64,000 nucleotides of DNA from a virus (IMGVR_UViG_3300037842_000377:1-64000), one strand, 5' to 3'; counted from the first letter of the stretch, positions 535-39,558 are shown. Notes: a model not told the origin generated them from the sequence alone. Translations and numbers: made by a program.

Positions 535-836
535 TGATCAAGATCACAGTCTCAGAAGCCGATAAACCTAGTGAGCCACTTATGAAGCTGTCTGAAATGT
601 TGGACTCTCCATATGGGACGGTCTTTCAGCAGTATATAGAAGGCAACCCCTCAAAAGAGTTCTGGATAAGCTGTGGTCATAGTGAGAAATCATTGGTAAA
701 CTTCTGGTGGGATGAAGAAGGCGGCTGTCACAAACTAAGTACAGATAGCAAGAAAACACTTAGATTACTCAAAGAGTCCATTCAGGCAAAACGTGTGGAC
801 GCAGATCTAAAATTGAAATTGAAAGTGAAAAAATAG
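534..836 (+). CDS. hypothetical protein
   Basis: ORF coupled to the upstream gene (TAATG). Confidence 0.7.
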   Translation: MIKITVSEADKPSEPLMKLSEMLDSPYGTVFQQYIEGNPSKEFWISCGHSEKSLVNFWWDEEGGCHKLSTDSKKTLRLLKESIQAKRVDADLKLKLKVKK

Positions 837-847
837 TCAAAAAGACC

Positions 848-876
848 TTGACAAACAGGGTCCAGTAGACTATAAT
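848..876 (+). promoter_or_regulatory. consensus sigma70 promoter upstream of the ncRNA array and 585-aa gene
   Basis: TTGACA (848-853), 17 nt, TATAAT (871-876). Confidence 0.88.
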
Positions 877-880
877 ATAT

Positions 881-933
881 GAGACAACAGGGGTTCCTAT
901 AAAAATCAATTTATGAAACTTACCCCTCGTCTT
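881..933 (+). ncRNA. repeated RNA helix, copy 1 (minimal A/U-rich loop)
   Basis: GAGAC-AAC-AGGGGT-TCCTAT...AAACTT-ACCCCT-C-GTCTT. Confidence 0.8.
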
Positions 934-939
934 TTTTTT

Positions 940-1052
940 GCAAGCGTAGCTCAATTGGCAGAGCACCAGATGTTACTTGTCAACTACGGTTAAAATCAAG
1001 TTCCTAACAAATTTTAAACTGTTAGATGCAGGTTCGAATCCTGCCGCTTGCA
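940..1052 (+). ncRNA. tRNA-like RNA (Lys-like remnant) with circularly permuted helix copy 2 in the anticodon arm
   Basis: Acceptor GCAAGCG/CGCTTGC-A, D arm AGCTCAATTGGCAGAGC, T arm GCAGG-TTCGAAT-CCTGC; anticodon arm holds ACTTGT-C-AAC-TACG-GTT-AAA-ATCAAGT-TCCTAA. Confidence 0.8.
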
Positions 1053-1055
1053 TTA

Positions 1056-1141
1056 GTGGTACAGAAAGTTCCTATCCGCTACTTCGGTAGCATGGTAAAC
1101 CCTTTCGGGGGTTTAGGTTCAAATCCTATACTTTCCACCAC
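1056..1141 (+). ncRNA. repeated RNA helix, copy 3, with two UUCG hairpins and a T-arm
   Basis: GTGGT-ACA-GAAAGT-TCCTAT...[GCTAC-TTCG-GTAGC][AAACCCT-TTCG-GGGGTTT][TAGG-TTCAAAT-CCTA]...ACTTTC-C-ACCAC. Confidence 0.8.
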
Positions 1142-1155
1142 AGTGATACAAATCA

Positions 1156-1202
1156 TGGGCATAAAGAGTTCCTATAAAAAATTGAAACTTACTCTTCGCC
1201 CA
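1156..1202 (+). ncRNA. repeated RNA helix, copy 4 (minimal loop)
   Basis: TGGGC-ATA-AAGAGT-TCCTAT...AAACTT-ACTCTT-C-GCCCA. Confidence 0.8.
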
Positions 1203-1210
1203 GTTAAAAC

Positions 1211-1296
1211 ATAGGTATAGAGAGTTCCTATTAAACCTCTGCCGCTAGGGCCACTTCGGTGGCAAGGCGGCTCCAAAAAATCTACTCTCCACTTAT
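1211..1296 (+). ncRNA. repeated RNA helix, copy 5, with GC-rich UUCG hairpin cargo
   Basis: ATAGGT-ATA-GAGAGT-TCCTAT...[GCCGC-TAGG-GCCAC-TTCG-GTGGC-AAG-GCGGC]...ACTCTC-C-ACTTAT. Confidence 0.8.
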
Positions 1297-1317
1297 TTTT
1301 TAGGAAGGACGTTAGCT

Positions 1318-3075
1318 ATGAAAACTCTGGAATTGTTTAACGCTGTTGTAGCCAAGCCAAGCAAGTCGGTTGACCCATTCGTGTCAGACCAAGGGTTTGT
1401 TGTTACTCCAGACGCTGCTTGGGCTAAGGATCGCATCGTTGCGTTCTATGGTCAGAACAAGTTGGACGGGAATGACCTGAACAAGGGTTTCCATAAGAGT
1501 TTCGCGAGGGTACGCAACTCATCTCGTTTTGAACTTGCTATGGAGCAGATCCGTCACTACGCATCTACTTACGGTAGCAACTTTGAAGACGAAATGTACA
1601 TCCCAGACGAAGTTCTGGAAGTGCCTGACGTTAAGTTGACGTTCAAGGTTGTTCGTGGTTTGACCGTGGAAGAAATGACAGAACGCTGTTTGGACATGCT
1701 TCGCTCAGGTATCGCCCTGACTGAAGAAACCGTTGACAGTTTGCTATCTATTCTACATGACGAATTGAACTACTCATTTACCGGAAAGGAAGGCGTTAAG
1801 AACAAAGAAGCGATCATCAAGATTGCTGATGCGTATGGCGTTATTCCTGACGATACAATGGAGTTCTTCCGTTACGTCATCTACCGTGCGACTGGGGAAA
1901 CCCTGTTGATCAAGAATGACAAGGCTATTGCTGCTATCAAGGAATCGTCTTTTAACCCATCTGTTCAGTTCCGTGCTCATGGAGTGGACCGTCTGGCGAC
2001 CATCTTCAATCGCTTTAAGCCACTGTTTTTGGCATTCAAGGGTCGATGCCCTGCTGTCATCAATAAGATCTCAAAGCTGTCTAAGACTCGTCATAAGCCT
2101 GTTCCACAGAACGCTTTGAATGAAGTGACAAGTCGTGTGTTGACTACTTGTGACCTTCACTGGTTGGACAACGCTACGCCCTTCGCTGTGTTCAAAGCTA
2201 TGACTGCGGTTTTCAATCGTATGCAGGGTCAAACTGTATTCAATTACCGTATTCGTAATGGTAAGAGTTGGGTTAAGGAAGGTAATGCACCTAAGGTCTT
2301 GGACATGGTGCAGAACTTTAATTTCCTGTCTGACTACGCTACTAAGCGTTGGAATCTGTTAGGGACTAAGGTTTTCCTTCCAGAGGATGTATCATACGCT
2401 GTGCCTACCTCTGAAAAGATGTTTGTGGGGAATATTCCTACGGGCAGCAAGTTTTTCGGAGAAAAGCTATGCGTTGGGATCTACTGGGAAAATGCTTGGG
2501 GTGCTCGTGACCTTGACCTCTCTGCCAGTGCTATTACTGGTGAAAAGATTGGTTGGAACGCTGGGTACTCTACGGGGTTACTTACTTACAGTGGGGACAT
2601 TACTAACGCTCCTAGCGGGGCTGTGGAATACCTACACTGTAAGAGTGGGACTAATCAGCCTTGGCTTGTACATAATAACGTATACTCAGGGTCTGATACA
2701 TCCGGATACAAGATCATTGTTGGTGCTGGAGACAGTGTTGACAAGAAGTTCCTGATGGACCCCAATAAGGTTACGATGGAAGTACGGACTGAAGCGGTTC
2801 AGAAGCAAATGATCCTTGGGATGTTTTTGCCTGAATCGAACGATACTCAGTCTTTTGTTCTTCTGAACTTTGGTGCTGGTCACGCAAGGGTCGGAGGTAG
2901 AAACACATTGGGAGTGCAGGCTCTGTACGAACAATACAAGAGCGTGTTTGACTTCGGACTGTTGCTACAAACACTGGGTGCGGAAGTTGTTACTGAAATC
3001 GATCCAGAGGATGAAGTCCTAGACTTCTCTGTGGATAAGTTGACAAAGGATAGCTTTACTAAGCTATTCAAGTAG
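1318..3075 (+). CDS. 585-aa phage protein with TerD-like C-terminal domain; candidate partner of the upstream RNA array
   Basis: Long ORF, RBS AGGAAGG; motifs FHKSF..EQIRHYASTYG, W..ARDLDLSA and YSGDITNAPSGAVEY. Confidence 0.85.
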   Translation: MKTLELFNAVVAKPSKSVDPFVSDQGFVVTPDAAWAKDRIVAFYGQNKLDGNDLNKGFHKSFARVRNSSRFELAMEQIRHYASTYGSNFEDEMYIPDEVLEVPDVKLTFKVVRGLTVEEMTERCLDMLRSGIALTEETVDSLLSILHDELNYSFTGKEGVKNKEAIIKIADAYGVIPDDTMEFFRYVIYRATGETLLIKNDKAIAAIKESSFNPSVQFRAHGVDRLATIFNRFKPLFLAFKGRCPAVINKISKLSKTRHKPVPQNALNEVTSRVLTTCDLHWLDNATPFAVFKAMTAVFNRMQGQTVFNYRIRNGKSWVKEGNAPKVLDMVQNFNFLSDYATKRWNLLGTKVFLPEDVSYAVPTSEKMFVGNIPTGSKFFGEKLCVGIYWENAWGARDLDLSASAITGEKIGWNAGYSTGLLTYSGDITNAPSGAVEYLHCKSGTNQPWLVHNNVYSGSDTSGYKIIVGAGDSVDKKFLMDPNKVTMEVRTEAVQKQMILGMFLPESNDTQSFVLLNFGAGHARVGGRNTLGVQALYEQYKSVFDFGLLLQTLGAEVVTEIDPEDEVLDFSVDKLTKDSFTKLFK

Positions 3076-3081
3076 GAGATT

Positions 3082-3210
3082 GGAAGGTTAATGTATTCCT
3101 GGGGCTAAATACCGTAGCTATCGTGAAATAAACACCAGACGTTCCCATATGCGAGCGAGGTACTGGTGATAAAAACACGACGTAGCCTGATTACAGGAAA
3201 CTGTACTTCC
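3082..3210 (+). ncRNA. long irregular rod-shaped RNA of unknown family
   Basis: Nested pairs GGAAG/CTTCC, TTCCTG/CAGGAA, GGGCTA/TAGCCT, TCGTG/CACGA, CACCAG/CTGGTG, CGTTC/GAGCG; no ORF. Confidence 0.55.
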
Positions 3211-3300
3211 TTTTGTTGCCACGCCAGTTGTCGCTGGCTAGTCGGGTGTTCCTCTAAATCCCGATGATTGAAGTAGGCTGACTGCCTATAAAACTACGGA

Positions 3301-3387
3301 GGCGGTAATTGAATTAGCCGGTGGAGGGTTAAATCCCAGTGAAGCTAGGTATGATGTAGGGGTGAGAAGCCCTGTTCGATTGCTGTT
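3301..3387 (+). ncRNA. tRNA-like structured RNA with two T-loop-like hairpins
   Basis: 13-bp closing stem GGCGGTAATTGAA/TTCGATTGCTGTT enclosing GGG-TTAAAT-CCC and TAGGG-GTGAGAAG-CCCTG; followed by a U-run. Confidence 0.5.
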
Positions 3388-3392
3388 TTTTT

Positions 3393-3501
3393 GTGATTGT
3401 GGCCGTAATGAGACAATTGGCGACTCACCCTGACTCTCGTATTATTTCCCATAAATTGGGTGTCAGGTCGGTTTATGCAGGTTCGACTCCTGTCAATCAC
3501 A
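3393..3501 (+). ncRNA. aberrant tRNA-like RNA with enlarged anticodon loop
   Basis: Acceptor GTGATTG/CAATCAC-A, D arm TGAG..TTGG..CTCA, stem CCTGAC/GTCAGG around a 27-nt insert, T arm GCAGG-TTCGACT-CCTGT. Confidence 0.65.
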
Positions 3502-3529
3502 CTAACCATTCTGAATGGTTTTACAATAC

Positions 3530-3803
3530 GGGGGCGTACTGGAATTGATTGGTAGACGGAGACTTCAACAACATGTGCTAGGTGGCGTGGAGGCTAGCTA
3601 AAAACCACACCAAACGATAACTGTAAACTCTTTTGCACTTGCAGCGTAAGCTGTGGGGCTTCTGTGAGCCTCATCACTCAATCACAGAGAGATCCTTCGG
3701 GAACTATCGCTAACAGCAAGAACCGTGCCTTAGGCACTAAACATGTAAAAACTGTTGATTTTGAAACCTATACAACACGCGGATTCGACTTCCGCCGCCT
3801 CCA
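3530..3803 (+). ncRNA. ssrA: tmRNA (one-piece, compact, 274 nt), tag (A)VNSFALAA
   Basis: GGGGGCG/CGCCTCC-A acceptor with G3:U70, T arm GCGGA-TTCGACT-TCCGC; ATAACT then GTA AAC TCT TTT GCA CTT GCA GCG TAA (3623-3649). Confidence 0.92.
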
Positions 3804-3923
3804 ATTCTTTTTCCCACGGTCTCCATCAGTTTTTGTGTACCTAATAATGGAAGCGGCGGAAAAACGATTGAAAGTCTCTAATGGTTGAGACTTAACTTTA
3901 GATCTTTTAGAAAGGAATTAAGT

Positions 3924-4313
3924 ATGAGAGGTCTTGTTTTGTTTGCTACTCTAGTAGCCTCAGTTGGTTCAGTGAGTTCAGCACAGGCGGGCGGTCCCTG
4001 TGTTACTGAGGTTCACGCGGTAGTGCCAGCGATTTACGTCGTTGAGCGACCTTCCATTTGTGTAAAACTGAAGGATCGGTTTTGCCTGATGAAGTCTCGT
4101 CTGAAGTCGTCGTTGACGACACGTAGGGTTCCAGCGTTTATAACGTCGGAAGAACTCTGTGCTGTTAAGAGGATTCGCTGTAAAGACGCTATCATTCAGC
4201 GTCAGAAAGAAGAAATTGAGGCACAGCAACGGGAGTTGGAACGGCGTAGGTCCGTAGCAGGGGTCGCTATTGTACCTTTCCAATACCGTACTTTGAAGTA
4301 TTACTCAAGATAG
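3924..4313 (+). CDS. hypothetical secreted protein
   Basis: ATG after AAGGA RBS; signal-peptide-like MRGLVLFATLVASVGSVSSAQA. Confidence 0.7.
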   Translation: MRGLVLFATLVASVGSVSSAQAGGPCVTEVHAVVPAIYVVERPSICVKLKDRFCLMKSRLKSSLTTRRVPAFITSEELCAVKRIRCKDAIIQRQKEEIEAQQRELERRRSVAGVAIVPFQYRTLKYYSR

Positions 4314-34073: not shown

Positions 34074-35699
34074 ATGAAGTGGTTTCCGTTGTGCAATTAC
34101 ACGCACTATTCTCTACAGCGAGCCTTCTCAAAGCCCAAACAACTAGCTAAAAAATGCTCAGAGAATTCTTATCGAGCCTGCGGGATTGCTGACTACAAGT
34201 CTATCTCCGGGGCCGTTTCTTTTTACCAAGCCTGTATCGCGAACGATATTAAGCCAATTATTGGTTGTGCGTTTGATGGTTTCACCCTCTTTGCTAAGAA
34301 CAAAGAAGGTTGGTTGGAACTAATCCGCATCGTGTCCACCCTCGACGACAGGGGAAATGTTGACACTGGGCTATTGGTCAAGCTGGCTAATCAGGGTAAC
34401 CTAATCTGTCTGGCTAGAGATCCCTCTGTCTCACCAATCTCGGGTGAAGACTTCTATCAGAAGAGTTCTGCTTTCCCAAATACGTATTACGTAGAGAGAG
34501 ATCAAGCTGAACTGCACAGGGTTTTGATATGTGGTCACCTAAAGAAGACTATGTCACAAGTAAAGCGGATGATCCGAAACAACACTGATATTGCTGACTA
34601 CCAGATATTCTTTGAGTGTAGCGAATTCTACATAAAAGACAAGATGGAGGCCGCACAGATTCTAGTAGATGATCCTAAGATGGATATCTTCGATGAGATC
34701 TTTGATAAGTGTGAGAACTACAATATCCTCAGTAAGCCAATGCTTCCTAAATTCCCCTGTCCCATTGGTTACAGCGAAGGTGAGTATCTGGTAAAACTGT
34801 GTAAAGAGGGTTGGTTGGAGCTAGAGAAAGACGGCACTATTACATCTGATAACTGTGTAGAATACAGGGCACGCTACGACAGAGAACTCAAGGTTATAGA
34901 GAATGCTAATCTCTCAGGTTACTTCCTTATCGTTTGGGATATTCTCAAATTCTGTCGTGATAACGGTTGGATGGTTGGTCCGGGTCGCGGTTCTGCTGCT
35001 GGATGTTTGATATCCTATCTCATGCAGATTACCATGATAGACCCTATTGAGTTTAATCTACTGTTCGAGCGTTTCTATAATGACGGTCGTAATACAGAAG
35101 ACCATGTATCCCTACCCGATATTGACATGGACGTTCCTACGGGTAAGCGTGACGCAATTATTCAGGAGTTGAAAGAGAGGTATGGTGCGGAAAATGTAAG
35201 TCAAATGTGTACTTTTGGTAGGCTTCAGGGTCGTAGTGCTATCAAAGAAGTACTACGTGTTAACCAAGCCTGTGGGTTTGGTGAGATGAACTACATCACA
35301 AAGTACATACCTGACGAGGCCGCTATCTCTGACCAGTTAGCTATGATGGATGAAGAGGATCGCTCTATCATTCGTTGGGCACTCCTGAACAACGCAGATG
35401 ATCTTAGAGACTACTGTCATATTGATGATGACGGTGAACTACGAGGTGACTACTCTGAGTACTTCCAACAGGCTATTGATATGGAGGGCACCTTTAAGAC
35501 TCAGGGTAAACACGCCGCTGGTGTGGTTATCTCCGCTCAACCGCTTCATGAGGTGTGCCCTATGGTCAACCAAAAAAGCGGTGGAGAAAAGATCGCTGGA
35601 TTAGAGATGAACGATCTGGAGGCACTGGGGCATGTTAAATTTGATGTTCTCGGGATAAATCTTTTGGATAAATTGATGTATGTGAAGGAATTAATATGA
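34074..35699 (+). CDS. dnaE: DNA polymerase III alpha, N-terminal half (PHP + palm)
   Basis: THYSL PHP start, GPGRGSAAG, LFERF, PDIDMD, GKHAAG, KFDVLG. Confidence 0.93.
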   Translation: MKWFPLCNYTHYSLQRAFSKPKQLAKKCSENSYRACGIADYKSISGAVSFYQACIANDIKPIIGCAFDGFTLFAKNKEGWLELIRIVSTLDDRGNVDTGLLVKLANQGNLICLARDPSVSPISGEDFYQKSSAFPNTYYVERDQAELHRVLICGHLKKTMSQVKRMIRNNTDIADYQIFFECSEFYIKDKMEAAQILVDDPKMDIFDEIFDKCENYNILSKPMLPKFPCPIGYSEGEYLVKLCKEGWLELEKDGTITSDNCVEYRARYDRELKVIENANLSGYFLIVWDILKFCRDNGWMVGPGRGSAAGCLISYLMQITMIDPIEFNLLFERFYNDGRNTEDHVSLPDIDMDVPTGKRDAIIQELKERYGAENVSQMCTFGRLQGRSAIKEVLRVNQACGFGEMNYITKYIPDEAAISDQLAMMDEEDRSIIRWALLNNADDLRDYCHIDDDGELRGDYSEYFQQAIDMEGTFKTQGKHAAGVVISAQPLHEVCPMVNQKSGGEKIAGLEMNDLEALGHVKFDVLGINLLDKLMYVKELI

Positions 35700-37998: not shown

Positions 37999-39558
37999 AT
38001 GGATTTGAAGGACGAAAAAGCGTGGGCCTTATATCACGATGGTCTCACCAAGGGTATTTTCCAGTTGGAGAGTAATCTTGGTAGGTCTTGGTCTAAGAAG
38101 GTGTCTCCCAGTAATATCGAAGAGTTGGCAGCACTCATTGCTATCATTAGACCCGGAACGCTCAAAGCTATTAGCGATGGTAAATCTATGAGCCAGCGGT
38201 TTGTTGACCGCAAGGCTGGCCGAGAGGAGGTTACTTACCTTCACGACTCTCTGGAGGATATTCTCAATACAACATACGGGGTGTTGGTCTATCAAGAACA
38301 GGCGATGCGTATCGCTGTGAAACTCGCTGGCTTCAGTGAGCAGGAAGCGGATTATCTACGTAAGGCTATCGGCAAGAAGAAAGCCAAGCTGATGATGGAA
38401 ATCCGTGGGCAGTTCATTGAGGGTTGTGAGAAGGTGGGTATAGTAGACGGTGATGTAGCTAAAGAAATCTTTAGCTGGATTGAAAAGTCGTCTCGATACT
38501 CATTCAACAAGTCTCACGCTGTGGCGTACGCCATGAACTCTTATTGGTCAGCTTGGTATAAAGCTAATCACACGGTTGAGTTCTTCACGTCTTACCTATA
38601 CCACGCGAATGAAAAACAGGATACCCATCAGGAGATCTATGAACTAGTCTCTGAGGCTAAACTGTTTGACATTGAGGTGAAGTCGCCAAATCTAACCTCT
38701 TTTGGTCTGAAATTTGAGCGTGTGGGTAGTGACGTGTTCTTTGGGGTCAAGGATGTTAAGGGTCTTACTGGGGTCACTGGTGACAAGGTGGTGAAAGCCA
38801 TTAAGGATGCTGTGTGGGAATCCAATAAATCACTAGAGGAATTCACTTGGATGGATGTTCTATTATACATTGCTCCCAACATAACTAGTACTGCTTTCAA
38901 AGCCCTGTGTTCTATTGGGTTTTTCTCTACCAAATCTACCGGTGTGAGCAGAAATAAGGCACTGTACGAATACCTTATATTCCGTGAACTGACTAAGGCG
39001 GAAATGAAGTGGGTTACAACGCAGTATCCGGAAAAACGATGGGAAACCCTTGGTGAGTGTTTTCAAGACCTGTCTCCTACAAAGAAGATGGGTGGAGGGA
39101 CCAGTAACGCCAACCGTAGTCAGATCGTCCTGAACGAAGTGGGTATGCTGGCAAGCCCACCATACGGAATGTCGGATGACCCTTCTTGGATCGTCGAGAT
39201 GGAAAAGAAGTTCTTGGGCTGTCCAGTTTCCCTAAGTGAAGTCGAAGCGGTCGATACGTCTATCTCCAACACTTCATGTAAGGATATCGCGAATGGGAAG
39301 TTTGGTAAGGATATCTGTCTTGTAGTGAACATCACAAGGATGAACAACTTCAAGATCAAGAAGCAGGGCAAGAACTTTGGCAAACTCATGTCATTCCTAA
39401 CCGTCGAAGATGCTTCCTGTTCTCTTGATAGCGTCGTGGTATTTCCTGAGACCAGAGAAAAGTACAGGTTCATTCTATATGAGGGCAACAATCTAATGCT
39501 GTGCGGCGACGTAGAGCAGGATAATTCCTTCATTGTTAACAAAATTCACGAAATCTGA
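37999..39558 (+). CDS. dnaE: DNA polymerase III alpha, C-terminal half (fingers, HhH, OB fold)
   Basis: GIFQLES, IRPG, TYGVLVYQEQ, LRKAIGKK, YSFNKSHAVAY, MSFLTVED. Confidence 0.93.
   Translation: MDLKDEKAWALYHDGLTKGIFQLESNLGRSWSKKVSPSNIEELAALIAIIRPGTLKAISDGKSMSQRFVDRKAGREEVTYLHDSLEDILNTTYGVLVYQEQAMRIAVKLAGFSEQEADYLRKAIGKKKAKLMMEIRGQFIEGCEKVGIVDGDVAKEIFSWIEKSSRYSFNKSHAVAYAMNSYWSAWYKANHTVEFFTSYLYHANEKQDTHQEIYELVSEAKLFDIEVKSPNLTSFGLKFERVGSDVFFGVKDVKGLTGVTGDKVVKAIKDAVWESNKSLEEFTWMDVLLYIAPNITSTAFKALCSIGFFSTKSTGVSRNKALYEYLIFRELTKAEMKWVTTQYPEKRWETLGECFQDLSPTKKMGGGTSNANRSQIVLNEVGMLASPPYGMSDDPSWIVEMEKKFLGCPVSLSEVEAVDTSISNTSCKDIANGKFGKDICLVVNITRMNNFKIKKQGKNFGKLMSFLTVEDASCSLDSVVVFPETREKYRFILYEGNNLMLCGDVEQDNSFIVNKIHEI

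Follow-up and report, generated by a model that had tools for sequence, protein, structure and literature searches.

We describe an array of small structured RNAs directly upstream of a gene for a 585-residue protein in IMGVR_UViG_3300037842_000377:1-64000, a 64,000-nucleotide stretch of viral DNA (hereafter the window) that opens an IMG/VR virus record of 111,468 bp with an estimated completeness of 67%; the DNA runs containing this sequence are seawater metagenomes. The units of the array constitute one previously undescribed family of small structured RNAs. Together with the adjacent protein they probably form a particle resembling that of Ro60 and its Y RNAs and acting in RNA repair or quality control, a reading that we favor with moderate confidence and in which binding, processing and the link to repair are inferred.

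The array encodes five copies of one RNA fold

The array (positions 881-1296) comprises four standard units and a fifth, permuted copy of the same fold. Read from 5' to 3', a standard unit consists of a 5-6-bp outer stem, a 3-nucleotide (nt) A-rich bulge, a 6-bp inner stem ending in G-U and the letters UCCUA, after which a variable loop leads into an inner-stem strand starting with A-C, a single bulged C and the second outer-stem strand. An initial annotation of this DNA, made before any search, had described a perfect TTGACA-17-TATAAT promoter followed by five such copies; the promoter is matched at 12 of 12 positions, and for all five elements the described structure is the minimum-free-energy fold (z -2.9 to -3.7). 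The annotated inner stems were likewise recovered in the four standard units, whereas the permuted copy has 5 pairs rather than the 6 to 7 implied. Unit 1 begins 5 nt past the -10 hexamer, and comparable promoter hexamers were seen by eye directly before the first unit in four viral loci (L024, L025, L031 and L098). At the other end, 22 nt separate the array from the ATG at 1318 of the 585-residue gene, in line with the roughly 20 nt first reported.

The cargo held in the loops varies as the annotation had described, with A/U-rich loops (units 1 and 4), a tRNA body, a T-arm module and a UUCG hairpin. Units 1 and 4 are simple: the former has a loop of 22 nt, is followed by a run of 8 T, and both scores well with the covariance model R1 introduced below (55.0 bits, E 1.5e-14) and has the motif as its minimum-free-energy fold (z -3.7), while the latter spans only 47 nt with a loop of 16 nt (56.9 bits, E 3.5e-15) and also folds as the motif. 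Unit 3, which folds in the same way (32.7 bits, E 4.7e-7), carries a UUCG hairpin, a second hairpin and a T-arm-like hairpin (UAGG UUCAAAU CCUA). The cargo of unit 5 is a long hairpin with a CUUCGG cap (40.1 bits, fold z -3.4), and its outer stem, AUAGGU/ACUUAU, is of the type kept in the last unit of many loci. Across the whole 111,468-bp record a covariance model built from relatives finds just the four standard units, and a strict pattern scan returned no further convincing copy beyond those already known.

Covariation supports a conserved structure that matches no Rfam family

To define the family we aligned 41 simple units from the window and viral relatives (alignment A2), built R1 from them and searched the window together with 34 viral loci encoding homologs of the protein (265.6 kb, both strands, E<=2e-4). 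The A5 alignment holds 92 model hits from 33 non-redundant sources. In these 92 units 96.6% of cells are paired, compared with 34-48% when the partners are slid, both-sided changes occur in 10 of 11 pairs and the covariation score is reached by none of 500 shuffles, figures to be read with the caveats that the 41 seeds were picked by a scanner requiring pairing and that A5 is fitted to the model. The covariation agrees with the earlier suggestion that the copies reflect structural conservation rather than a DNA repeat. The letters G-U-U-C-C-U and U-A-C are invariant, the former at the 5' side and the latter at the 3' side. As fifth letter, following UCCU, most lineages have A, and the group of S-CRM01, S-CBWM1, L035 and Phass-1 has U or G. 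Most units have an A/U-rich loop of 15-28 nt that starts with UAUAAA and ends with AAAUU or AAAAU, and others place a stable hairpin, often with a UUCG or GNRA cap, at a fixed loop position. Overall lengths range from 41 to 120 nt (minimal units 41-55 nt), and T runs follow some units.

The comparison with Rfam proposed in the annotation was carried out against Rfam 15 and gave no family for the units, neither at the gathering score nor at E<=10. The literature likewise yielded no description of the unit RNA; the alignment supplements of a 10,006-candidate viral RNA catalogue (PMC10690425) lay outside that search, and the motif may appear there nameless. Hammerhead, twister, hepatitis delta virus-like, K-turn and bulge-helix-bulge readings, considered by eye, were dropped because the conserved positions are plain Watson-Crick pairs with no pseudoknot. 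A pairing of UCC with GGA within the loop was also set aside as not being a general feature, GGA being present in just 21 of 82 units found by the scanner. In its relaxed form the scanner also caught several chance sites within genes, and we therefore relied on counts from the covariance model.

The RNAs accompany the gene in viruses and cultured phages

Twenty-nine of the 34 viral loci have usable upstream DNA (five pairs of loci are near-identical), and 27 of these 29 contain units. All 78 R1 hits in the viral loci lie on the strand of the gene, and all but one fall within 553 nt upstream of it, the exception being a unit 16 nt past the stop codon in L030; most loci have 13-32 nt between the end of the last unit and the start codon. 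Retrieving such loci depended on the method, as a single-sequence search of viral contigs gave none and an alignment-based search worked. A DNA similarity search of 50,697 phage records found no relative of the window. At the protein level three cultured phages have a relative, S-CRM01, S-CBWM1 and Phass-1, and the complete genomes of all three have units. In the 178.6-kb genome of S-CRM01 all five units flank g174, a single one of them just past its stop codon, and S-CBWM1 has two units among tRNA genes. Of the eight units of Phass-1, five are found 1.3 kb downstream of the gene; the other three are scattered among tRNA genes 9-11 kb upstream, where two of them flank a suppressor tRNA. Hypothetical open reading frames (ORFs) are annotated over units in S-CRM01 (HQ615693.1, 132391-132537, g173c) and Phass-1 (OQ749652.1, 92744-93043) and are probably not genes.

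We also examined the association in the opposite direction, from RNA to gene, using 80 viral loci fetched by a 15-base motif. R1 confirmed units in 14 of these loci, 11 of them strongly, and 10 of these model-positive loci, compared with 0 of the 66 model-negative ones, have a homolog of the gene no more than 2 kb away; four of these 10 gene-holding loci come from contigs already seen. Arrangements other than an upstream array also occur: in L041 and L077 the array is downstream of the gene, and in L098 two units with a strong promoter precede an unrelated 125-residue ORF. Near viral copies we sporadically observed an RNA ligase (L020), Tpt1 with a metallophosphoesterase (L011), HAD_SAK_1 (L019) and NADAR (L023).

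In Bacteroidota the module belongs to rtcB operons

A scan of one genome per species placed relatives of the protein in at least 209 bacterial genomes, so that the original label of a "TerD-like phage protein" is too narrow as to phage. The best 80 of the 209 were analysed. They are all Bacteroidota, mostly Chryseobacterium, with others from Tenacibaculum, other Flavobacteriaceae, Chitinophagaceae, Marivirga and Roseivirga. Units lie directly upstream of the gene in 80 of 80 loci (227 R1 hits, all upstream and on the strand of the gene), and an independent scanner placed 211 of 213 bacterial units within 600 nt upstream. Together with the viral loci, this bears out the enrichment beside homologs that had been put forward as a check. 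The distance from the last unit to the start codon is at most 23 nt in 73 of the bacterial loci (mostly 13-21 nt, with one of 1 nt) and 34-104 nt in the other seven. In three complete chromosomes of 3.4-4.7 Mb, for which 150 first-look candidates per genome were scored, strong matches occur at this locus alone; the one match at another place, in a single chromosome, is weak (E 0.0017).

In 60 of the 80 bacterial loci rtcB is the immediate upstream neighbor, in the same orientation; this adjacency is absent from the window and the viral loci. In Chryseobacterium the order is a divergent WYL regulator, rtcB, the RNAs, the gene, an 82-residue ORF and RlaP, followed by a 213-residue ORF, an R2K ATP-grasp protein, a 589-residue ORF and a second RlaP. 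Tenacibaculum has rtcB, a 208-residue ORF, an RF-1-domain protein, a TPR protein, a 103-residue ORF, the RNAs and the gene, and then RNase_T, an array of 15 tRNAs, an RNaseH-like protein and Band_7, and in Pontimicrobium an array of 19 tRNAs precedes the RNAs, the gene and Band_7. Of the 80 bacterial loci a single one has Band_7 within 1.5 kb, and no viral locus does. In the Pontimicrobium locus, the segment separating the gene from Band_7 (L167, 3383-3598) gives sub-threshold matches to YrlA (34.4 bits) and tRNA (33 bits), which may represent the predicted Band-7-associated tRNA. In a Winogradskyella metagenome-assembled genome (L172) the array opens with a tRNA-like RNA (993), and about 400 nt before it there is a GOLLD-like RNA (126-605; 136.9 bits, E 1.3e-36, slightly below the gathering score of 150).

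Sister operons carry Ro60-type proteins instead

The connection to RNA repair, a guess when first made, gains support from the presence of the module in rtcB operons of Bacteroidota and of TROVE, the family of Ro60, in sister operons. Among 121 genomes of the bacterial family containing genome G001, the gene is present in 5, RtcB in 46 and TROVE in 16. All five gene-bearing genomes have the gene within about 0.5 kb of an rtcB hit, and in five other genomes (G097, G077, G043, G083 and G031) the distance between a TROVE protein and an rtcB hit is 0.9-3.7 kb, that hit being similar in score and equal in coverage of the RtcB model to the gene-side hits. We fetched four of these TROVE loci (G097, G077, G043 and G083). 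Their RtcB is 80-82% identical to the gene-side RtcB, RlaP is 78% identical in three of them, and R1 found no unit in any of the four (best E 0.42). Two of the TROVE-type rtcB operons (L249, 5085-5214; L251, 5201-5329) encode a tRNA-like RNA of about 130 nt whose anticodon arm holds a different long hairpin (ACUUUAUCA...UGAUAAAGU); this RNA has no match to Rfam YrlA at E<=0.01 and is probably an unannotated type of Y RNA. Given this shared orthology, rtcB operons of this kind carry either a TROVE protein, with an insert-bearing tRNA-like RNA in two of four cases, or the TerD-fold protein with its GUUCCU RNAs.

The likeness to Ro60/Y RNA extends beyond the operon. Ro60 (Rsr) and its Y RNAs (YrlA/YrlB) are found in rsr-yrl-rtcBA operons of bacteria and in some phages. 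In both systems the protein gene is accompanied by one or more small RNA genes, a conserved bulged helix near the RNA ends is combined with a variable module, and often at least one RNA per locus has a tRNA-like domain. Both also adjoin rtcB, as reported for Ro60/Y RNA in passages of the Wang 2018 preprint. There are also differences. Among the fold matches listed for the full model and for the N-terminal domain, the best of the latter being weak, there is no Ro60 chain. Ro60 combines a helical-repeat ring with a vWA domain, whereas the C-terminal domain here is TerD. In place of the GNCGAAN0-1G Ro-binding motif (a GNCGAAN0-1G / GGUCCGA helix in the part of Chen et al. 2014 that describes it), the units have GUUCCU(A); their 5' strand carries the 3-nt bulge and their 3' strand the single C. 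An effector module is lacking from many of the units, which are then minimal, the units form arrays of up to five, and Rfam YrlA and Y_RNA give no match on 700-4200 at E<=10. Because TROVE, the Ro-binding motif and a YrlA match are all missing, we read the system as an independent counterpart of Ro60/Y RNA. The layout first suggested, that of Ro60/Y RNA with a different helix and a non-TROVE protein, is thus supported by the linkage, the tRNA-like cargo and the rtcB context.

Whole and permuted tRNA bodies occur as cargo

The element at 940-1052 has an acceptor stem, a D-arm and a T-arm and scores 51.4 bits with the Rfam tRNA model RF00005 (gathering score 29), and in place of the anticodon loop it carries 49 nt that hold the circularly permuted unit. 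This unit (975-1006) reads ACTTGT C AAC TACG GTT AAAA TCAAGT TCCTA, with the hairpin at 975-1001 and UCCUA at 1002-1006; its outer stem is loop-capped and its inner helix opens toward the tRNA body. ARAGORN makes no tRNA call for 940-1052, which has no 7-nt anticodon loop with a readable anticodon. The same placement of the motif hairpin, in the anticodon loop of a normal tRNA body, occurs in the window and in L003, L008, L009, L013, L014 and L024, and the acceptor stems of the motif-bearing viral bodies, compared by eye, vary in sequence between loci. In bacteria the pattern D-arm...GTTCCT...T-arm is present in 56 of 80 loci. Stretches of 3-8 nt separate the anticodon stem from the motif, and inspection by eye of eight motif-bearing tRNA bodies gave no consistent U33-anticodon-purine37 pattern.

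Cargo of a second kind is found in L016, where two units (2187-2304 and 2310-2429) each enclose a circularly permuted tRNA body composed of a T-arm, a tetraloop-closed acceptor stem and a D-arm; the Rfam tRNA model bridges both units with 29.5 bits. The same order of T-arm, closed acceptor stem and D-arm is given for YrlA in the relevant part of Chen et al. 2014 (PMC4201824). Marine Flavobacteriaceae share a T-arm subtype of the unit with CUGGUUCGAUUCCAG, a GAAA-capped hairpin and GUGGUU.

The protein joins a helical domain to a TerD fold

AlphaFold modelled the whole 585-residue protein with a predicted local distance difference test (pLDDT) score of 79.7, and the N-terminal domain alone, a helical domain of about 360 residues, with 90.2. 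The C-terminal domain is a TerD beta-sandwich (2qz7_B, Z 10.7, root-mean-square deviation 3.2, 137 residues aligned; 2kxt, Z 9.9) with a Foldseek probability of 1.00 against four TerD entries, so that the TerD-like label is correct for residues ~380-536. About 160 C-terminal residues thus adopt the sandwich of the TerD family of tellurite-resistance Ter systems, whereas the protein as a whole differs from that family in lying below the Pfam TerD threshold (0 of 83 members match the profile at E<=0.1), in its fusion to the 360-residue helical domain and in its context of RNA genes and rtcB, with no other Ter genes seen nearby. TerD domains are viewed as ligand or Ca2+ binders in passages of Iyer et al. 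2021 (PMC7824862). Searches with the N-terminal domain gave no credible fold match (best Z 6.3 over 68 residues, best Foldseek E 0.12); the weak Foldseek rows are mostly helical-repeat proteins and prove nothing. Its invariant polar residues are Y81, N162, E164, N249 and R313.

No Pfam, PHROG or NCBIfam family was found for the protein or for any of 83 relatives, and a sequence-profile search of the PDB gave nothing meaningful. In agreement with its designation as a non-TROVE protein, the TROVE model (PF05731) has no match in the window protein at E<=1 or in 83 diverse relatives at E<=0.1; this is the model that does detect the TROVE proteins of the 16 genomes above. The family is nevertheless large, with more than 1494 matches in one search and 1559 clusters at 50% identity (E<=0.001), and identity is about 57% across many metagenomic relatives. 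A search of the ESM Atlas returned unnamed viral clusters only, and full-length structural look-alikes are found in Campylobacter virus IBB35, Lactobacillus phage LpeD and an uncultured siphovirus.

A proposed protein-tethered RNA particle and its alternatives

What the analysis shows is the RNA fold with its covariation, the association of the RNAs with the gene, the operon setting and the folds of the protein. In the particle that we propose, the bulged helix with its G-U-U-C-C-U would be the docking site for the adjacent 585-residue protein, and the variable part, whether nothing, a hairpin, a T-arm module or a whole or permuted tRNA body, would emerge at a permissive loop site. The protein would hold the RNA while the tRNA-like modules recruit or mimic tRNA-shaped RNAs, in a process of repair or quality control that may center on the ligase RtcB. 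Bacteria have the module as part of rtcB operons and phages carry it, without rtcB, within islands of tRNA and transfer-messenger RNA (tmRNA) genes, where it presumably keeps phage and host translation RNAs usable under nuclease attack. Judged by their positions in L041, L077, L030, S-CRM01, Phass-1, S-CBWM1 and L098, the RNAs look trans-acting rather than a mere leader; the near-constant spacing of the last unit from the start codon would allow an added cis role.

Several observations weigh against the proposed particle. Neither domain of the protein has a known RNA-binding fold. L010 and L019, both with full upstream DNA, have the gene and no unit within 2.5 kb. The phage record, at its 67% completeness, contains no rtcB, RlaP or Band_7. 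The 80 bacterial loci are non-independent samples because Chryseobacterium dominates them. Three of the five gene-bearing genomes in the family of 121 also hold a TROVE protein at another locus, and the two systems are therefore not mutually exclusive. Contigs from four metatranscriptome runs cover the gene, the tmRNA (3381-3762) and 3104-3345, and none lies on the units; a 91-nt contig is uninformative here because it touches 947-965 and 1028-1046 through generic D-arm and T-arm letters only. Lastly, most loci have a near-fixed gap of 13-21 nt from the last unit to the start codon, with which a cis role agrees at least equally well.

This gap is one argument for a cis-regulatory leader, in which units in the 5' untranslated region would control transcription or translation of the gene, for example through feedback binding of the protein at the last unit, beside the ribosome-binding site, or through attenuation. 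In nearly all loci the units lie on the strand of the gene and immediately upstream, the last of them within 23 nt of the start in the 73 bacterial loci and 13-32 nt before it in most viral ones; the last unit often retains the outer stem TAGGT/ACTTA, and T runs follow some units. A leader would not be expected, however, to follow its gene as the arrays of L041 and L077 and the single units past the stop codon in L030 and S-CRM01 do, nor to lie at the distances seen in Phass-1 or before the unrelated ORF of L098, the copy number varies from 1 to 5, and whole tRNA bodies as cargo are hard to account for. We consider a leader function by itself unlikely, and a dual role restricted to the last unit possible.

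Two further explanations appear more remote still. In one, the N-terminal domain would be an endonuclease that opens the units and RtcB would reseal them, giving circular or rearranged tRNA-like RNAs or removing inserts from tRNA bodies. If true, this would be a protein-only pathway of RNA splicing or circularization in bacteria and phages, with tRNA bodies and permuted tRNAs as natural substrates. It would fit the location of the motif, which is precisely within the anticodon loop of tRNA bodies that are complete otherwise and vary in their acceptor stems (by eye), the permuted bodies enclosed by the helix in L016, the immediate proximity of the RNA-splicing ligase RtcB in the 60 bacterial loci, the Tpt1 and RNA ligase near some viral copies and the invariant residues of the N-terminal domain. 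Nevertheless, most units are simple loops with nothing to splice, fold searches gave no nuclease fold, the two bulges lie opposite each other, unlike the bulge-helix-bulge of known splicing endonucleases, and the variable 3-8 nt next to the anticodon stem come without a consistent anticodon context in the eight examples inspected; we regard this reading as improbable. Marginally less probable again are decoy or antidote RNAs that neutralize a nuclease or toxin, either the adjacent protein, as in type III toxin-antitoxin systems, or a host anticodon nuclease. The succession of promoter, RNA array and protein gene resembles toxIN-type loci, and the setting in phage tRNA islands and the patchy spread (5 of 121 genomes) would suit such a function. 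The units, though, differ in sequence and are alike in structure, unlike the near-identical repeats of type III antitoxins, their loops are unlike anticodon loops, and the protein is large, highly conserved and without a nuclease or toxin family match, including any ToxN/AbiQ-type match with family models (no PADLOC search was made).

Relation to other RNA systems

If the RNA array and the TerD-fold protein do form the proposed particle, it would apparently be a third pair of a scaffold protein and a tRNA-like RNA in bacterial RNA-repair operons, with an unrelated protein and an unrelated helix. Both Ro60/Y RNA and Band-7/b7a-tRNA have been proposed for such operons, their role there being left open in passages of the Wang 2018 preprint, according to which Burroughs and Aravind 2016 predicted a Band-7/SPFH protein and a "b7a-tRNA" next to RtcB. 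The Band-7 system resembles the present one in joining a predicted scaffold protein to a tRNA-like non-coding RNA in RtcB repair loci, and the module has Band_7 genes next to it or close by in Pontimicrobium and Tenacibaculum. The protein family differs, however, no Band_7 protein is encoded in the window, and the description of that system in the same passages includes neither a GUUCCU bulged helix nor arrays of minimal units. Our literature search found no paper linking the 585-residue TerD-fold protein to RtcB; the RtcB-neighborhood survey of Burroughs and Aravind 2016 lay outside it.

The RNA arrays of UG27-type reverse transcriptases are also borne by phages and consist of fold-keeping, sequence-divergent units beside dedicated protein genes, with a copy number that varies between relatives as it does here. 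Their units, however, measure about 135-167 nt and template cDNA through a reverse transcriptase with two accessory proteins, whereas the units here span 41-120 nt and have another motif, and no reverse transcriptase family was found among 78 window proteins, 95 flanking viral proteins and 46 bacterial neighbors.

Independent solutions to the same problem would make a shared function testable by comparison, and the minimal units of 41-55 nt are very small, defined RNAs suited to binding and structural studies. The RNAs also add an unannotated family to phage tRNA islands and explain apparently spurious short ORFs in published phage genomes.

Neighboring features of the window

The coordinates of the promoter, the units, the gene and the tmRNA gene that follows it are collected in Table 1. 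A tmRNA directly after the gene is also present in L003 (permuted, 80.3 bits) and L005 (73.9 bits).

Table 1. Features of the locus, in positions of the window.
Feature	Position	Strand	Details
Sigma-70-type promoter	848-876	+	TTGACA-17-TATAAT
Unit 1	881-933	+	GAGAC / AAC / AGGGGT / TCCTA ... ACCCCT / C / GTCTT
tRNA body with permuted unit	940-1052	+	Rfam tRNA model
Unit 3	1056-1141	+	GTGGT / ACA / GAAAGT ... ACTTTC / C / ACCAC
Unit 4	1156-1202	+	TGGGC / ATA / AAGAGT ... ACTCTT / C / GCCCA
Unit 5	1211-1296	+	ATAGGT / ATA / GAGAGT ... ACTCTC / C / ACTTAT
Gene for 585-residue protein	1318-3075	+	N-terminal domain, residues 1-~358; C-terminal domain, ~380-536 (nt ~2455-2925)
tmRNA gene	3530-3806	+	Rfam tmRNA, 52.2 bits; context, not a proven part of the system

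Two metatranscriptome contigs, each from a different study, fall between the gene and the tmRNA in the non-coding stretch 3076-3530, where they span 3104-3345 and 3109-3297. For 3104-3345 Rfam gave nothing at E<=10 and nhmmer found no relative in any fetched locus; the segment may be a further, lineage-specific non-coding RNA. A promoter-like site lies at 3417-3445, and just upstream of the one-piece tmRNA, 3450-3530 contains a T-arm-like hairpin (GCAGGTTCGACTCCTGT) and a weak match to the permuted tmRNA model (18.6 bits). A second perfect promoter at 62-89 (12 of 12 positions, 16-nt spacer) ends where a tRNA-Ala (89-163) begins, and a normal start site would therefore fall within the tRNA.

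Farther along the window, a homolog of DNA polymerase III alpha is split into ORFs at 34074-35696 and 37999-39555, 2.3 kb apart, with the PHP and NTPase domains in one ORF and the finger domain in the other, and with ORFs for YopX and an RNase_T-type exonuclease between them. From 30612 to 61062 there is a long run of genes for glycosyltransferases, sugar epimerases or dehydratases, methyltransferases and nucleotidyl-transferases, of an extent unusual for a phage.

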